This document shows, in pieces, positions 3,516-21,706 of a stretch of 64,000 nt of DNA. The notes beneath the pieces are model-generated. The model had not been told where the DNA came from and made no database searches. It was given only the letters and a program-made list of their open reading frames with translations. The position numbers were made by a program, and so were the translations under genes. Origin of the DNA: Malacoraja senta (Eukaryota); NCBI GenBank assembly GCA_038087875.1, contig CM075990.1:14696001-14760000 (forward strand), written 5' to 3'. Every line of letters starts with the position of its first letter. Positions within the stretch are counted from its first letter, which is position 1.

Positions 3516-3791
3516 TGTTTTGAATTGGTGTTGAGCTTCCAGGTAAGAGGAGAGTGACCTGTCATATTCCCAGTTTGTGTCTTGTGGAGGATGGGAAGGC
3601 TTTGGGTTATCAGTCAGTGAGCCACTCACCATAGGATACCCAGTTTAGCTCCTGTGGTAGTTCCATTGGAGTTTCTGATCACTGGTGACAACCTAACCTT
3701 CCCACTCTGGTAGGAAGTGTGGGAGAGATCAACATGCACGTGGAAAATCATATATTATCGTGGGATATCCCTTAGATCAAGCCTATCAGGA

Positions 3792-4187
3792 CTGAGACAA
3801 AAGCACACTGGATAGCCACCAAGTGGTCACAGGAGTGGAAGGCAACCTCATCTCCATTACACAGCTACATCTCTTCACCAGATAAAAACTGTCCAGAGTC
3901 TGACCTCCCCAGAGGAGCATGGGTGAAGCTCAACAGACTTGGTACTGGAGTTGGGCGTTACAATGCCAGCATGTGGTGATGGGGGCTCTGCCAGAGCCCA
4001 GCCTGTGAATGCGGAGCAAAACAACAGACAGCCAACCATGTTACTTCTGGGTGCCCGCTCTACCACCCACCAAATGGAGCTCAGGGCCTGGGAGATATTG
4101 ACGCAGAGACAACAACCTGGCTGCTCAACACCCAGCTTGAGATCTAACTATTCCTTTGGTTTATGTTTCATTCGCAAGAAGAAGTAG
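3792..4187 (+). mobile_element. Vingi/Ingi-clade LINE, 5'-truncated 3' end, with 13-bp TSD
   Basis: Frame 3794-4147 reads ...DLPRGAWVKLNRLGTGVGRYNASMW*WGLCQSPACECGAKQQTANHVTSGCPLYHPP...WLLNTQLEI* (CCHC knuckle typical of Ingi/Vingi ORF ends). Tail CGCAAGAAGAAG. TSD AAGCCTATCAGGA at 3779-3791 and 4188-4200. Confidence 0.8.
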
Positions 4188-4337
4188 AAGCCTATCAGGA
4201 AATATGATTAAATTCTACTTTAAAAAAATTAGTTGTTCCATGACGCCATCGTGACCAGTTTTTGAAGTGTTCATTGATGTGTCAGAAGGACAAGTTGATT
4301 TCCTAATAAAGGGAACTTCAAGGTACAGATATGTGTT

Positions 4338-4554
4338 ACGGGTGTGGGAAAAAATGGCAGATGTTGATTTAAATTGAAGATAGACACAAAATGCTGGAGT
4401 AACTCAGCAGGACAGGCAGGCAGCATCTCTGGAGAGAAGGAATGGGTGATGTTTCGGGCGGTCTGAAGAAGGGTCTCCACCAGAAACGTCACCCATTCCT
4501 TCTCTCCAGAGATGCTGCCTGTCCTGCTGAGTTACTCCAGTATTTTGTGCCTAT
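4338..4554. mobile_element. Penelope-derived hairpin element with 14-bp TSD
   Basis: Inverted arms around GTCTGAAGAAGGGTCTC. TSD TACAGATATGTGTT at 4324-4337 and 4555-4568. Confidence 0.85.
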
Positions 4555-4689
4555 TACAGATATGTGTTCATGTCACTTCCAAGTCTGACCATGATGAGTT
4601 GGAGTGCCCAGTGAGTATCAAAGATAACTCTTAATCATGTCAATCAGCATACTCGGCACCATCACTCTTTGGAACAGTGAAAGTTTGTT

Positions 4690-5058: not shown

Positions 5059-5798
5059 ATAGCTGCTGCTGGCGCCGACGATGGCAGCCACGGTGTACTG
5101 CTCCTTGCTGTTACTTACTAAACTTACTTACTTACTTATATTAAAAAAAGGTATTTTGATGAGGGCTTCAGTCCCATAATGTTGACTGCTTCTCTTTCCA
5201 CGGATGCTGCTTCCCCTGCATTTTTCCAGCACTTTCTATTTTTATTTTCAGTCTCCAGTATTAGTTTCTTTTTTTTCGTACATTTAACCGGAACAAATGA
5301 AACACTTTGACAACATTTTTAATGTAAAATACCATTATGTATATTGGTCTGATGTAAAAAAAAATCGAATTGGGAAATTGGAGCCATTTTACTGTTCTAT
5401 AACGTTGGTCAAATCAAATGAGAAACATTACTGCGTGTTTGATGATTCATTTATCCAATTTTATGACAAAGACCTTTTAATGGAAGCGCGTCTTTCAATT
5501 TCATGGTGGAGATAAATAGGTTTGAAAGCTGGATATTTAATCTCAAACTTGTTTTATATTACTTTTAAAATACCAAACAAAATGTTAAATTGATGTGGAA
5601 TTTTCAAGCTTATTGTTTCAAGAAAGTTATTTGCTGTTTGTTTAAAAAAGTTTACGATTCCAAACCACAACTGGGCACCCAAATTCACTTGATCAGAGTT
5701 TTAAACAGTAAATTTGAAGTTTTACTCTTTCAGTAATAATGTTTTTTCGTGTCATGAGGAGTTGGAAATTAATGTGCGGTACTTGCAGCACCAGAAGT

Positions 5799-6075
5799 CT
5801 TCTTCTTGCGTTTGAGGCAGCAGACGTTACGTAACGCCCTCCAGGCGCTGTAGACAGTTTGGCCATCCGCATTCAGCTGCAGCAGGGTGATGCCGCCCGG
5901 TTTGACCCTAAAAATGGTGCATGCTCCAGGTTGGCGCCAAGCCATGGCAACAGAGGTTGCATTAGGGCTGCAAGCTGCGGCGACTGAGGTTGCATTACTT
6001 CTGCTGCCATCTCTGTTTGTTGTCGCTCGTCAGTTGACAGGGCTCACCACGGGGAAGTCGACAACATGAGCCCCC
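5799..6075 (-). mobile_element. Short non-autonomous retroposon with 5' HDV-like ribozyme and Vingi-type (GAA)n tail
   Basis: Minus strand starts GGGGGCTC... and ends CGCAAGAAGAAG. TSD AGCACCAGAAGT (5787-5798) / AGTACCAGAATT (6077-6088), 10/12 identical. Confidence 0.75.
6018..6074 (-). ncRNA. Candidate minimal HDV-like self-cleaving ribozyme (57 nt)
   Basis: GGGGCTC-A-TGTTGTCG-ACT-TCCCCGT-GGT-GAGCCCT-G-TCAACTGA-CGAG-CGACAACA. P1 is 7 bp with a G1.U wobble, P2 is 8 bp perfect, P3 is 3 bp, L3 is UCCCCGU and J4/2 is CGAG. Confidence 0.75.
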
Positions 6076-6394
6076 AAGTACCAGAATTGGAATGGTAAAA
6101 TAGAAACAATTTTCAAAGTTAGAATTAGTTTAAAAAAAAACTAGGTAGCCAGTCATTGTTTTTTTCGTGACAGTATGTGCCAATTCGGCACCTCGAAAAA
6201 GTGTAAAAACTAGATTAATGTGCAGCAGCTAATAGCGACACATGAACTATTATATGTGTGCTGGCATCTTTTGCCGATCAAATAAAAGCAATATTTGTGG
6301 ACATATATAGCATTGAAATGTGTCCATGAAAACATCAAGGTCCCAAGTATACTAATTCCGTTTACCAGCAATTGGTCACAGTCTTTTATGGGAA

Positions 6395-7547: not shown

Positions 7548-8110
7548 GGTGTATAAGAGGTGTACAAGATCATGACAGGAATAGATTGGGTATATGCACA
7601 GAGTCTCTTGCCCAGAGTAGGTGAATCGAGGACTCGAAGACATAGCTTCAAGGTGGAGGGGAAAAAATTTAATAGGTATCTGAGGAGTAACTTTTTCACA
7701 CAAAGGGTTGTGGGTCTTTTTCTCGTTGAGTCCACACACAAGATTAGAAGTTTTTCAGCCAGAGCTGAACACATGTCTCGGCATCTGCATACAATGGTGT
7801 CTGTCTTGTGCTTCTTGTGCTTCTTGTGCGTGGTGGTGGAAAGATTGGTGGAAACAGGGCCACGACGTGAATGCTATTTCCTTGACCCCAGGGTGGTGGG
7901 TGTATGGAACAAGCTGCCAGAGGAAGTAGTTGAGGCAGGGACTATCCCAACTTTTAAGAAACAGTTAGACAGCTACATGGATAGGACAGGTTTGGTGGGA
8001 TATGGACCAATTGCGTGGAGGTGGGACGAGTGTAGCTGGGACATATTGGCCGGTGTGGGTAAGTTGGGCCGAAGGACCTGTTTCCACACTGTATCACTCT
8101 ATGACTCTAA
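7548..8110 (+). mobile_element. CR1 LINE 3' fragment interrupted by a 174-bp insertion
   Basis: YKIMTGIDWV...RTRRHSFKVEGKKFNRYLRSNFFTQRVV | insertion | RVVGVWNKLPEEVVEAGT, the typical CR1 ORF2 C-terminus. Confidence 0.85.
7716..7889 (-). mobile_element. Second short retroposon with a degenerate HDV-like 5' head, inserted in CR1
   Basis: TSD AGGGTTGTGGGT (7704-7715) / AGGGTGGTGGGT (7890-7901). Minus strand starts GGGGTCAAGGAAATAGCATTCACGTCGTGGCCCT and ends CTCAACGAGAAAAAG. Confidence 0.65.
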
Positions 8111-17653: not shown

Positions 17654-19188
17654 ATAATAATAATAATACATTTTATTTATAATAGCGCTTTTCAAGGACT
17701 CAAATTTGCTTTACATGTAGAGTCAAAAACAAAACAAAATAGAGCAGTAAGACAGAGATGCAAAGGGGAGGGGGACATGGGACGAAGGGTATGCAGAGGT
17801 GAAGAGATGGGTCTTGAGGCGGGACTGGAGGATGGTGAGGGACTCAGAATTTCAGATCAGTTGTGGGAGGGAGTTCCAGAGCCTGGGAACTGCCCTGGAG
17901 AAGGCTCTGTTTCCAAAAGTGCAGAGGTTGGATTTCGGAATGGAGAGGAGACCGGCTGATGTGGATCTGAGGGACCGTGAGGGTTGGTAGGGGGAGAGGA
18001 GGTCAGTGAGATAAGGGGGGGGCCAAGTGGTTGAGGGCTTTGTAGGTGAGGACCAGGATTTTGTAGATGATCCGGTGGGAAATGGGAAGCCAGTGAAGTT
18101 CTTTGAGAACTGGGGTGATGTGGTGCCAGGATTTGGTGTGGGTGATGAGTCGGGCGGCTGCATTCTGGACCAGTTGGAGTCGGTTGATGTTGCTGGCCAA
18201 AGAGAAGAGAAGAGAGTTACAGTAGTCCAGTCGGGAGGAGATGAAGGCATGGATGAGTCTTTCAGCAGCGGGGGGTGTGAGAGAGGGTTTTGATTTTTGC
18301 AATGTTGCGGAGGTGAAAAAATGATGTTTTGACAACATGGCGGATGTGAGGCTCAAGGAAGAGGGTTGAGTCAAAGATCACGCCAAGGTTGCGGGCCTGA
18401 GGAGATGGGGAGACAATGGTGCCGTCAATAGTGAGAGTGGGGTTGTTAATTTTGGTAAGTGTTGATTTGGAGCCAATGAGGAGAAATTCTGTTTTGTTAC
18501 TGTTTAATTTAAGGAAGTTGAGTTGCATCCAAGATTTGATGGCTGACTTGCAGGAGTTGATATGGGAGAGAGGGGGGTGGTGGGGGGACTTGGTGCTGAG
18601 ATAGATCTGGGTGTCATCAGCATAGCAGTGGAAGTCCAGGTTGAAGTGACGGAGTATATGACCAAGGGGGAGGATGTAGATGATGAAGAGGAGGGGACCA
18701 AGAACGGAGCCTTGGGGAACGCCTTGAGTGACAGTGGCTGTGGCAGAGGTGTGGTTATGGAGAGAGATGAAGTGGGATCGGTTGGAAAGGTAGGAACGGA
18801 GCCAGCTGAGTGCAGAACCTTCAATGCCAAGGTCTTTTAGTCTGGTAAGCAGGATGTTATGGTTCACGGTATCGAAGGCTGCACTCAGGTCGAGGAGGAT
18901 GAGGATGTTGAGGGAACCAGTATCAGCAGAGGTGAGGAGGTCGTTGAGGACTTTGAGGAGAGCAGTTTCTGTGCTATGGAGGGGGCGAAAGCCAGATTGG
19001 AGGGGTTCGAATAGGTTATACGCGAGGAGGTGGGAATGAAGTTGTGACGCGACGATACGCTCCAGGGTTTTTGAAAGAAAGGGGAGGTTTGAGATGGGGC
19101 GGTAGTTAATGAGAGAGGAGGGATCAAGACCAGGTTTCTTTAAGATTGGTGTGACAGCAGCAGTTTTGAAAGCAGTTTTAAGATCAGT
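17654..19188 (-). mobile_element. L2-clade LINE, 5'-truncated, with a frameshifted reverse transcriptase
   Basis: NYRPISNLPFLSK, QSGFR..HSTETAL, LLDLSAAFDTV, GVPQGSVLGPLLF, YADDTQIY, then SRLDYCNSLL and HITPVLKELHWLP in other frames; (TTA)n tail. Confidence 0.95.
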
Positions 19189-19189
19189 G

Positions 19190-19190
19190 T

Positions 19191-19231
<41 letters not shown>

Positions 19232-19312
19232 ACACACGCACGCGCACGCGCACGCGCACGCACACGCACACGCACACGCACACGCACACGCACACACATG
19301 CACACGCACATG
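19190..19312. repeat. (CA)n / (CACG)n / (CACACG)n compound microsatellite
   Basis: Seen directly. Confidence 0.95.
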
Positions 19313-21706
19313 CATATTTAAAAAAAACAATTATAGTGCAATATTAACAATAACCATCTATGTAGTTCAGAGCTATTTGGAGGTTGTAGTGTTTAATAGT
19401 CTAATGTGGGAAGAAGCTGTTCCTGAACCTGGACCGTACAGTTTTCAAGCTCCTGTACCTTCTACATGATGGCAGGGGTGAATTGAGTATGTGGCCAGGG
19501 TGGTGTGGGTCTCTGATGTTGCTGGCTGCCTTTTTGAGGCAGCGATTCTGGTAAATCCTGTCGATGGTGGGCAGGTCAGAACCCGTGATGGACTGGGCAG
19601 TGTTCACAAGTTTTTGCAGTCTTCCCTCCTGAGCATTCAAGTTGCCGAGCCAGGCCACGATGCAGCCAGTCAATATGCTCTCTACTGTACACCTGTAGAA
19701 GTTCAACTCTACAAGAGATCGGAGTCCAATATGTGTTGTATTACCTATTCTTCTGGGTAGATATTCTGAGGAGGGTTTGGTGCAATGTGGTGCAAAAGCC
19801 TGAATGTGATTGGGGTATAGGAGAGTGGTGTGATGTGGCATGGCATTGGAGATTTCAACTGTGGACTGACTCAATGATGGCAGGGGAAGACAGAAGCCTT
19901 TATTCTTGCTCATACACAATCTTGGAAAGCGACCTAGTTTCCTTCTTCATAAGACAGTTCTTGCTGCACTTGGCTGCTGGATTTTTCAAGGCCTAATGTT
20001 AAAGTTTAAATGGGAATACAATAAGAGGTAGGTGCTTTATCAAACCACTTAAATGAGGCACACACCTCCTGACTTCCCTCAATACTTCCAATAAAAGTTT
20101 GTTGAAAGTTGACCTGAAACATTTACTCTGCTTTTCTCCACCAATGTTGGCTGACCTGCCATGCATTTCTAGAAACCTCTGTTTCTCCTTCAAATTCCCA
20201 ACAACTTGTAATTTTAGACAAAGTGAATGCTGGAGTAACTCATCGGGTCAGGCAGCATCTCCGGAGAAAATGGCTTGGTGACGTTTTGTATCAGGACCAT
20301 TCTATAGTGGCAGAAGGCCACTACACCTTCAGATGGATTGTAAGATGGGGGGGGGGGGGGGGGGACTGGAAGCAAGATAAGCTTATTATTTTACTCTTGC
20401 AAGTCTAGTACTTTCATGGGGTACTTTTCAAAGCCATCATAAAAGCAGCATTTTGTATAGTTGCCCAATTTATCAATTAATTAATTATTTTACTGTAAGC
20501 CATTAGCTTCAGGTTTTAATTTTATGTGTATAAGAATGTGCAGGCATGTAACTTCAGTTGTATTTTCCATTTGCTTTTTAACTTGTGTAATTTTATTGCT
20601 TGTTCTGTATTAAGCAGAATGCATTTTCAAGTAATATTTCAATGAAGCAGATCCGTTTGTCATCAGTTTTCTCTAGAGGACTTGATCGGACTTAGAATAA
20701 CTTCAGCCAATGTTTGTGGGTTTCCTGTGTGCTACAAAATATCTAGGCTTAATAAAAAGATCTCTTGTGAAATGAAGCAGAATCCATGAACGGTAATGCA
20801 GTTTGCTGAACTTCAGAAGTTCCCCATGATCACTTTGCCAAATGTTGCAATGGTTTGAGAAATTGGGCATTTTCACACTTGGAGATAGTTCGAAAATTTA
20901 TTAGCTATTCATGTGTGGCAGGAGTCAAGGAGATCTGATACTTAAATGCATAGAAAAGGTTACTTGAGATTTAAAATTTGCAATTATACCTCTTTGCAAC
21001 ACTTTCACAGCAAAACCAATTTCTGCGATTTGGCCATGAATCTATTTGATGCATTGCATACACTGACATTACAGATTTTGACCTTTGTTATCATGAGGAC
21101 ATGAAAGCCACCCCATCATAAGCCCATCTATGTCTGTAGAAATGGCCTGATCACCAAATGTGACATGTTAATACGGAACGAATAGAATATATTTTTTGAC
21201 AAGACATGAAAAATCACCCTGTGGCAGTTGGCACGGCGAATACATTTCAGTAGAGACACTAGTAAAGTAAATCTGACAAGTAAAGAGGAGAGATGATGGT
21301 TAGAAGGTGCTTTTTGTTTCGCATTTTTTTGACCTGTCAAGTTTCAAAAAAGCTGAATGGCCGTCTTTGTCGTGTGGAAATTGTAGTGTGAAGCAGTTAT
21401 CTCTGTTAAAATTGTGAAAGCTGGTTTAATTGATTCACTTAAGGTCTGATTCTGTCAAATATTAATAATTGCCAAACTCTGTTCAGAGATATAACTCCAA
21501 TGTGTCATGTTAAAATGTGTACTTATCAAAGAATTAATATCGTTAATGAACCAGTGGTTTGAAACTAACATTGCATGAAATTGTGTCTGCCCTTTCATAT
21601 TGCTGAAGGTAGATCAACAAGCTTTCAGGGGAGAAGTAATAACTTGCAACATTGGAGTTCCATTTGTATGGTAAACCAAGTCATGTCAGAGATTGAAGTG
21701 CTACTT

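Follow-up and report, generated by a model that had tools for sequence, protein, structure and literature searches.

The window, by which is meant the whole 64-kb stretch of DNA analyzed here, carries on its minus strand, at 5799-6075, a short element that opens with an HDV-like ribozyme fold and closes like a LINE. The question raised by this locus is where such an element comes from, how it is copied, and what its head contributes. An earlier note on this DNA proposed a SINE-like family that is headed by a ribozyme fold, independent of Pol III and copied by a Vingi-type RT in the manner of NARTc and RIME. The analysis below supports such a family and its mode of copying, whereas the SINE-like independence does not hold.

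On the minus strand, 6074-6018 folds as a decayed copy of an HDV-like ribozyme with CPEB3 architecture, an assignment drawn from pairing, alignment and family-level covariation. P1 joins 6074-6068 to 6045-6039 (with G1.U as its first pair), P2 joins 6066-6059 to 6025-6018 at eight of eight positions, and P3 joins 6058-6056 to 6048-6046 around a 7-nt L3; these helices, the GT of J1/4 and the C at 6029 are all present as had been described. From the fold, cleavage is predicted 5' of G6074, and C6029 is the predicted catalytic base. A pairing descriptor, designed with the window sequence already known, finds 6074-6018 as its one site in the window and no site in 60 dinucleotide shuffles. The remainder of the element, also on the minus strand, consists of the rest of a LINE-derived 5' part at 5860-6017 (5' UTR and the first APE endonuclease codons, GITLLQLN), with a putative start ATG at 5995-5993 inside a 33-nt tandem duplication, and of a LINE-derived 3' part at 5799-5859 (last ORF codons, a stop codon at 5829-5827, a short 3' UTR and an (AAG)n tail), which is 92% identical to the 3' end of two longer elements, L095 and L097. 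The TSD, at 6077-6088 (5' copy) and 5787-5798 (3' copy), is identical at 10 of 12 positions and lies, as previously claimed, close to the predicted cleavage site, 2 nt from G1.

This particular copy is damaged. It has an 11-nt deletion in P4 between 6030 and 6029 (family positions 46-56), the changes C19T in P3 and A60G in J4/2, and a 16-nt private deletion within 5860-6017. It alone lacks positions 46-56, which the other 23 of the 24 aligned subfamily copies retain, and the family has a 5-bp P4 hairpin, so that it falls outside the P4-less (theta-type) class. P4, which had been called vestigial, is therefore half lost in the window copy but intact in the family, and what had been taken for a minimal ribozyme is the decay of one copy. 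The final A of J4/2 is required in HDV-like ribozymes, a requirement backed here by its invariance among the families compared. In a pseudoknot-free ensemble, the catalytic C is paired 44% of the time in the window copy versus 5% in L056, an intact sister copy; MFE folding of both, by a method without pseudoknots, lengthens P1 at the expense of P2. With half of P4 gone, A60 changed and the catalytic C paired 44% of the time, activity of the window copy must be considered doubtful, and the copy is probably impaired.

As the earlier note anticipated, the element is multi-copy and has TSD-flanked relatives throughout the 1.94-Gb genome, and in an alignment of the 30 best loci homology begins at G1 and runs to the (AAG)n tail. 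Six of these 30 were left out as partial or as having duplicate flanks, giving a subfamily set of 24 full-length, non-duplicate copies. The deletion junction of the ~300-nt type was matched at least 60 times with up to two mismatches (a few of the 60 are segmental duplicates or stop at the junction) and that of a ~200-nt sister type at least 347 times with up to one mismatch, the reversed-pattern control giving 0 in both cases; a third type, of ~320 nt, has one example (L162). These copy numbers are lower bounds, and the DNA searches scored 40 candidates with a bias toward query-like copies. The 5' ends do pile up at G1, a check that the earlier note had suggested: of 37 independent short copies, 26 have a TSD that stops at the base immediately preceding G1, and under a strict TSD rule offset 0 has 19 copies, with no other offset between -8 and +3 exceeding 7. 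Most of the TSD junctions carry no extra G. The shared junction, together with individual TSDs and the tail, indicates that the family multiplied as a unit. Non-CpG divergence in the 24 subfamily copies is 3.3% in the head and 4.0% in the body, and every pair and core base is kept in only two of the 24; copies thus decay neutrally after insertion. Because they do so from one master, covariation within the family is unsuitable as a test of the helices. No relatives were found in viral contigs. In three short copies (L027, L029 and L026), the 33-nt repeat bearing the start codon has expanded into arrays.

The origin of the short element became clear from copies that extend from the head into the endonuclease frame. 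L095 and L097 are 3.1-kb LINEs, referred to here as family A, to whose 5' ends positions 2-246 of the short copy L003 are 88% identical and to whose 3' ends its positions 244-308 are 92% identical. Their broken frames contain the Pfam APE and RT domains, and RNase H is absent. Further full-length copies of family A are L159 (dispersed) and L160, and dispersed, 5'-truncated copies carry the same tail. The short element joins the 5'-terminal ~245 nt to the 3'-terminal ~65 nt of this 3.1-kb, single-ORF, Vingi-type LINE; it is, in other words, a SIDE, or bipartite non-autonomous LINE, and not a SINE, and several independent deletion types of LINE A exist. No tRNA was found in the element by ARAGORN and no match to A/B-box patterns in the family consensus, as had been stated, and the head is not a tRNA-, 7SL- or 5S-derived one with internal Pol III boxes, as in a SINE, but the LINE's own 5' end. 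The statement that the element contains no coding ORF is only partly right, given that the LINE's putative start codon, GITLLQLN, last codons and stop are retained. By its domain architecture, on which the clade placement of family A rests, the parent is a Vingi-type LINE: its ~3 kb hold one ORF that encodes APE and RT but lacks RNase H, as the clade is defined (PMC13708176). A full-length family-A LINE with A rather than G at position 1 lies inside a larger unit that has been multiplied over numerous unplaced contigs (L034-L046, L095-L128; 238 first-look candidates), each with another, deleted head close by. Just before its APE motif (window 5995-5860, minus strand), family A has the residues DVEPDG, faintly 2A-like and lacking the NPGP of the 2A consensus; this is probably not a 2A.

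Other elements in the window were considered as well. On the plus strand at 3792-4187 lies the 5'-truncated 3' end of a Vingi-type LINE of a second family, B, flanked by a 13-nt TSD (3779-3791 and 4188-4200). Its 12-mer at 4173-4184 does recur at the end of the short element, on which basis this neighbor had been proposed as the mobilizing partner. It belongs, however, to a different family: B and A share ~70% DNA identity in two short stretches of the RT region and ~50% APE identity, and their 3' UTRs and heads differ, leaving only the last 12 nt in common. The neighbor was likewise rejected as the parent, both ends of the element deriving from LINE A instead. Full-length family B copies bear their own HDV-like head, and in one of them (L178/L179, 713-745) the first 16 nt of the head are duplicated. 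An RT fragment of another LINE clade, with a 351-codon open frame and ~30% identity to the Vingi RT, occupies 18006-19317 (minus strand), and a long inverted repeat at 4378-4558, a palindromic element with weak Rfam miRNA-family matches, has arms resembling others that recur often in the window. No host gene exon was evident by eye among 103 stop-to-stop frames of at least 85 aa in the window.

The fold is not confined to one element. The first 68 nt of family A can form P1 (7 bp, the first pair G.U), P2, P3, P1.1 and P4 in the order of a nested double pseudoknot. J1/2 is a single nucleotide, the same spacing as in the Rfam CPEB3 consensus, and P1.1 is one C-G pair in most families, as in CPEB3, and two pairs in family C. 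The Rfam check gave a divided answer: the scan of the window returned no ribozyme match at 6074-6018, whereas L056 matches the whole HDV-F-prausnitzii model (RF02682) from G1 (E 0.0044), its 32.8 bits, like the 32.8-36.7 bits of family A generally, falling below the 44-bit cut-off. Searching the genome with RF02682 found only three family-A copies, all below that cut-off. A partial Rfam CPEB3 match elsewhere in the window, at 7856-7889 (E 0.47), was read as chance. The heads of family B differ in sequence and agree in topology, with four of the seven P1 pairs changed on both sides. Applied unchanged to 80 metagenome loci (the best 80 of 500 by APE alignment, 67 of which have at least 300 nt upstream), the descriptor matched in 12, corresponding to ~8 distinct insertions since several of the 80 are the same insertion in sister assemblies. 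These matches constitute families C and D, and all 12 lie on the coding strand, 163-208 nt upstream of the APE start; elsewhere in the 368 kb of these loci, on both strands, there were no matches. When the catalytic C was substituted in the descriptor, A matched two loci, G three and T none, versus 12 for C.

Comparison between families provides the covariation that comparison within one cannot. With one copy each of eight families (A, B, C, D and E1-E4), 90.8% of cells are paired, 13 of the 19 pairs have changed on both sides, bearing out the helix covariation that had been looked for, and the covariation score is 0.763, compared with 0.236 when partners are shuffled and no more than 0.19 when they are slid; the set consists of related lineages, three of the eight being single decayed copies with broken 5' ends, and the shuffle counts are not probabilities. 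An earlier set of nine sequences from four families had two-sided changes in 11 of 19 pairs. Invariant in all eight families are A8, C18, U20, C22, G25, U26, G37, C57 and A60, and the window copy departs from this core at A60. In an indirect check by back-translation of 208 proteins, four of 154,981 13-residue windows fit the core in one frame, all of them in N-terminal read-throughs; the N-terminal extensions of the database proteins P0016, P0030, P0187 and P0194 appear to read through the ribozyme core. In a quick APE tree, A, B, C, D and E1 group with a single set of homologues that lack RNase H, and E1 lies at a distance from A, although the tree is poorly rooted, with its outgroup on a very long branch and with neither an RNase-H-bearing Ingi nor a named Vingi reference. 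An HDV-like fold that begins exactly where a TPRT-inserted family begins is supported as a structural model. The earlier note had missed that this fold belongs to autonomous LINEs across the clade, and, judging from sequence, the same head appears to be the clade's ancestral 5' end.

The CPEB3 ribozyme, to which these heads are compared, has been linked to memory. It has been described as a single, conserved intronic copy and reported only from mammals (PMC8233481; bioRxiv 10.1101/2022.09.22.508989). Of 59 matches scored when the present genome was searched with the CPEB3 model (RF00622), 39 nevertheless reached the 35-bit cut-off, the best at 64.2 bits, while none did so in 14 control genomes. 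Ten of the 20 best matches head the LINE E1, two are inverted E1 heads, and eight lie in the older families E2-E4. E1 (L294-L301) is young, with ~3.14-kb copies that are 96-98% identical to one another and that encode APE and RT and no RNase H; one copy, L299, has a 1014-codon open frame. Several tandem partial heads stand upstream in L299/L284. Counted by eye against the Rfam CPEB3 consensus, E1 (L276) shares 42 of 51 core positions, most of its changes being compensatory, and family A, which is below the RF00622 cut-off, shares 26 of 51; E3 heads resemble CPEB3 in the free P4 stem as well. Closest of all is the crocodilian Vingi-2_Gav, of whose gharial sequence positions 2-74 are printed, with no ribozyme comment, in the supplement to Kojima 2018 (PMC5786205), the main text of which does not mention CPEB3. 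Again by eye, its 5' end agrees with the consensus at 48 of 50 core positions (36 of 38 at positions 2-39 and 12 of 12 in J4/2-P2'). E1 is tied to Vingi-2_Gav only through this 5' sequence. One LINE lineage, overlooked earlier, thus carries what appear from sequence to be near-copies of the mammalian CPEB3 ribozyme. The same supplement also prints SINE2-1_AMi; by eye, its middle resembles a head of the CPEB3 type, P4 included, and its 'unknown' 3' end is similar to that of the E1-E3 LINEs.

Taken as a whole, these observations favor, with a probability of roughly 0.85, an internally deleted derivative of LINE A whose ribozyme head cuts 5' of G1 and whose RNA is copied in trans by the LINE protein. 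In this model, the first 68 nt would fold into an HDV-like double pseudoknot with the helix lengths of CPEB3, the head would cut RNA 5' of G1 and so free a unit-length RNA from any longer transcript, and the LINE A protein would recognize the retained 3' end and copy the short RNA. The TSDs and the (AAG)n tail are those of spread by target-primed insertion. In L1Tc/NARTc and R2, the head is reported to cleave 5' of +1 and to release the element from longer transcripts; it may also serve as a promoter or help translation (PMC3383444, PMC4035085, PMC3414825). Additional evidence comes from 5'-inverted insertions, in which a ~90-110-nt head, reaching to within 0-5 nt of G1, stands back-to-back with a 3' fragment of a LINE. 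The internal junction is at position 1 in L281, 2 in L155/L161 and 6 in L292, and TSDs are visible in L281, L292, L278, L285 and L286. A template RNA that itself stopped at G1 would be expected to leave such ends, and the insertions resemble products of twin priming that favors a site immediately beyond the ribozyme. Inverted heads recur in both CPEB3-like (L281, L292, L278, L282, L285, L286, L289 and L291) and family A (L155/L161) form.

A different account, on which the head keeps its HDV-like fold but serves chiefly as a promoter within the element or as a structure bound by protein, G1 is the transcription start and cleavage is absent or incidental, also predicts a precise 5' end. It can draw on L1Tc Pr77, which is both promoter and ribozyme (PMC3383444), on SIDER heads that fold correctly and failed to cleave (PMC4035085), and on the 1-nt J1/2, since Agam-2 constructs with a 1-nt spacer cleaved little (PMC4908430). 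The one-pair P1.1 of most families, the MFE folds, the small number of intact heads and the matches of the A and G controls also weigh against cleavage. Yet the bases invariant in eight families are unpaired catalytic-core positions, the paired positions covary, E-type heads have 82-96% core identity to an assayed ribozyme, and the general lack of an extra G at TSD junctions also speaks against it, making this account quite unlikely. Scarcely credible is a SINE-like element that was assembled on its own, bears a minimal ribozyme lacking P4 and is mobilized by the LINE ending at 4173-4184: the shared terminal 12-mer and the fit of the window copy to a P4-less descriptor speak for it, but the 11-nt deletion is missing from 23 of 24 subfamily copies, the head and 3' UTR of family B are different, and as to origin it is already refuted by the derivation of both ends from LINE A. 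Cleavage by a LINE-derived head, followed by copying in trans, remains the preferred reading.

Since Vingi-2-like heads are so close to the CPEB3 ribozyme, the latter is most simply explained as a domesticated Vingi 5' end, possibly left by a 5'-inverted insertion that detached a ~100-nt head from its LINE body. That mobile elements can be a source of domesticated ribozymes has been suggested in general terms (PMC7761336), and human DNA contains a Vingi trace, X12_LINE (PMC5753468). It is accordingly proposed, with moderate confidence, that Vingi-type LINEs, in invertebrates and vertebrates alike, as a rule begin with an HDV-like ribozyme, and that a Vingi-2 head was domesticated as the CPEB3 ribozyme. 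Convergence on an optimal HDV-like sequence, or transfer from mammals to the LINE, would account for the likeness without descent, and the shortness of the comparison (~50 core positions, and for Vingi-2_Gav only 73 printed bases) gives such explanations some room. They are unlikely, however, in that the same fold brings family A to only 26 of 51 positions, compared with 42 of 51 in E1 and 48 of 50 in Vingi-2_Gav, so that having the fold in common does not fix the sequence; moreover, the CPEB3-likeness of E3 extends into a free stem, P4, and such heads are spread through the entire LINE clade, in this fish-like genome and in invertebrate-like contigs. Domestication of a Vingi-2 head would give the CPEB3 ribozyme a concrete, testable origin.

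Vingi would thereby join the LINE clades whose 5' end cleaves itself, as predicted here, with the short family as a dispersed vertebrate counterpart of NARTc/RIME and the eight natural variants of one fold as a ready covariation and activity series. There is a practical side as well: Vingi-1 UTRs are in use in RNA gene-writer templates (PMC13708176), and if the Vingi-1 5' UTR self-cleaves, this would bear on the capping, stability and 5' junctions of gene-writer RNAs. A list of ribozyme-bearing clades omits Vingi (PMC5786205), and in a 2026 review that mentions Vingi 37 times, R2 is the only element for which ribozymes are named. A literature search found no report of a Vingi ribozyme or of a CPEB3-Vingi link, although Repbase, Dfam or patents may name one otherwise. 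Ribozyme-headed deletion derivatives (NARTc, RIME and R2 SIDEs) and bipartite Vingi derivatives are both already known; judged by sequence, it is the placement in Vingi that appears new.

Among known systems, the family is most like NARTc/L1Tc and RIME/ingi, in which a short, non-autonomous element likewise has an HDV-like 5' head and a 3' end in common with an APE-type LINE; these belong to a sister clade and are reported to share a ribozyme in the 5' ~77 nt, with cleavage at +1 and TSDs of 11-12 nt (PMC3383444, PMC4035085). Unlike them, the present family has an animal host, a parent without RNase H and with no 2A detected, an (AAG)n tail in place of poly(A), ORF remnants flanking its junction, and a ribozyme that is predicted. 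The R2 SIDEs of Drosophila (PMC3414825) resemble it in joining a 5' ribozyme to the parent's 3' end by internal deletion and in spreading by TPRT, but R2 is RLE-type and specific to rDNA, whereas this family is APE-type, dispersed and present in hundreds of copies. The parent itself is like Vingi LINEs, such as Vingi-1_EE, in its single ORF with APE and RT, its lack of RNase H and its length of ~3.1 kb, and internal-deletion derivatives of such LINEs are known (PMC5786205). Finally, the heads share with the CPEB3 ribozyme (RF00622) identical helix lengths and numbering, the 7-nt L3, G37/U38 and, in family A, a catalytic C57 that is the first base of J4/2; they differ from it in being the 5' ends of multi-copy LINEs and, in family A, in having only ~51% core identity.
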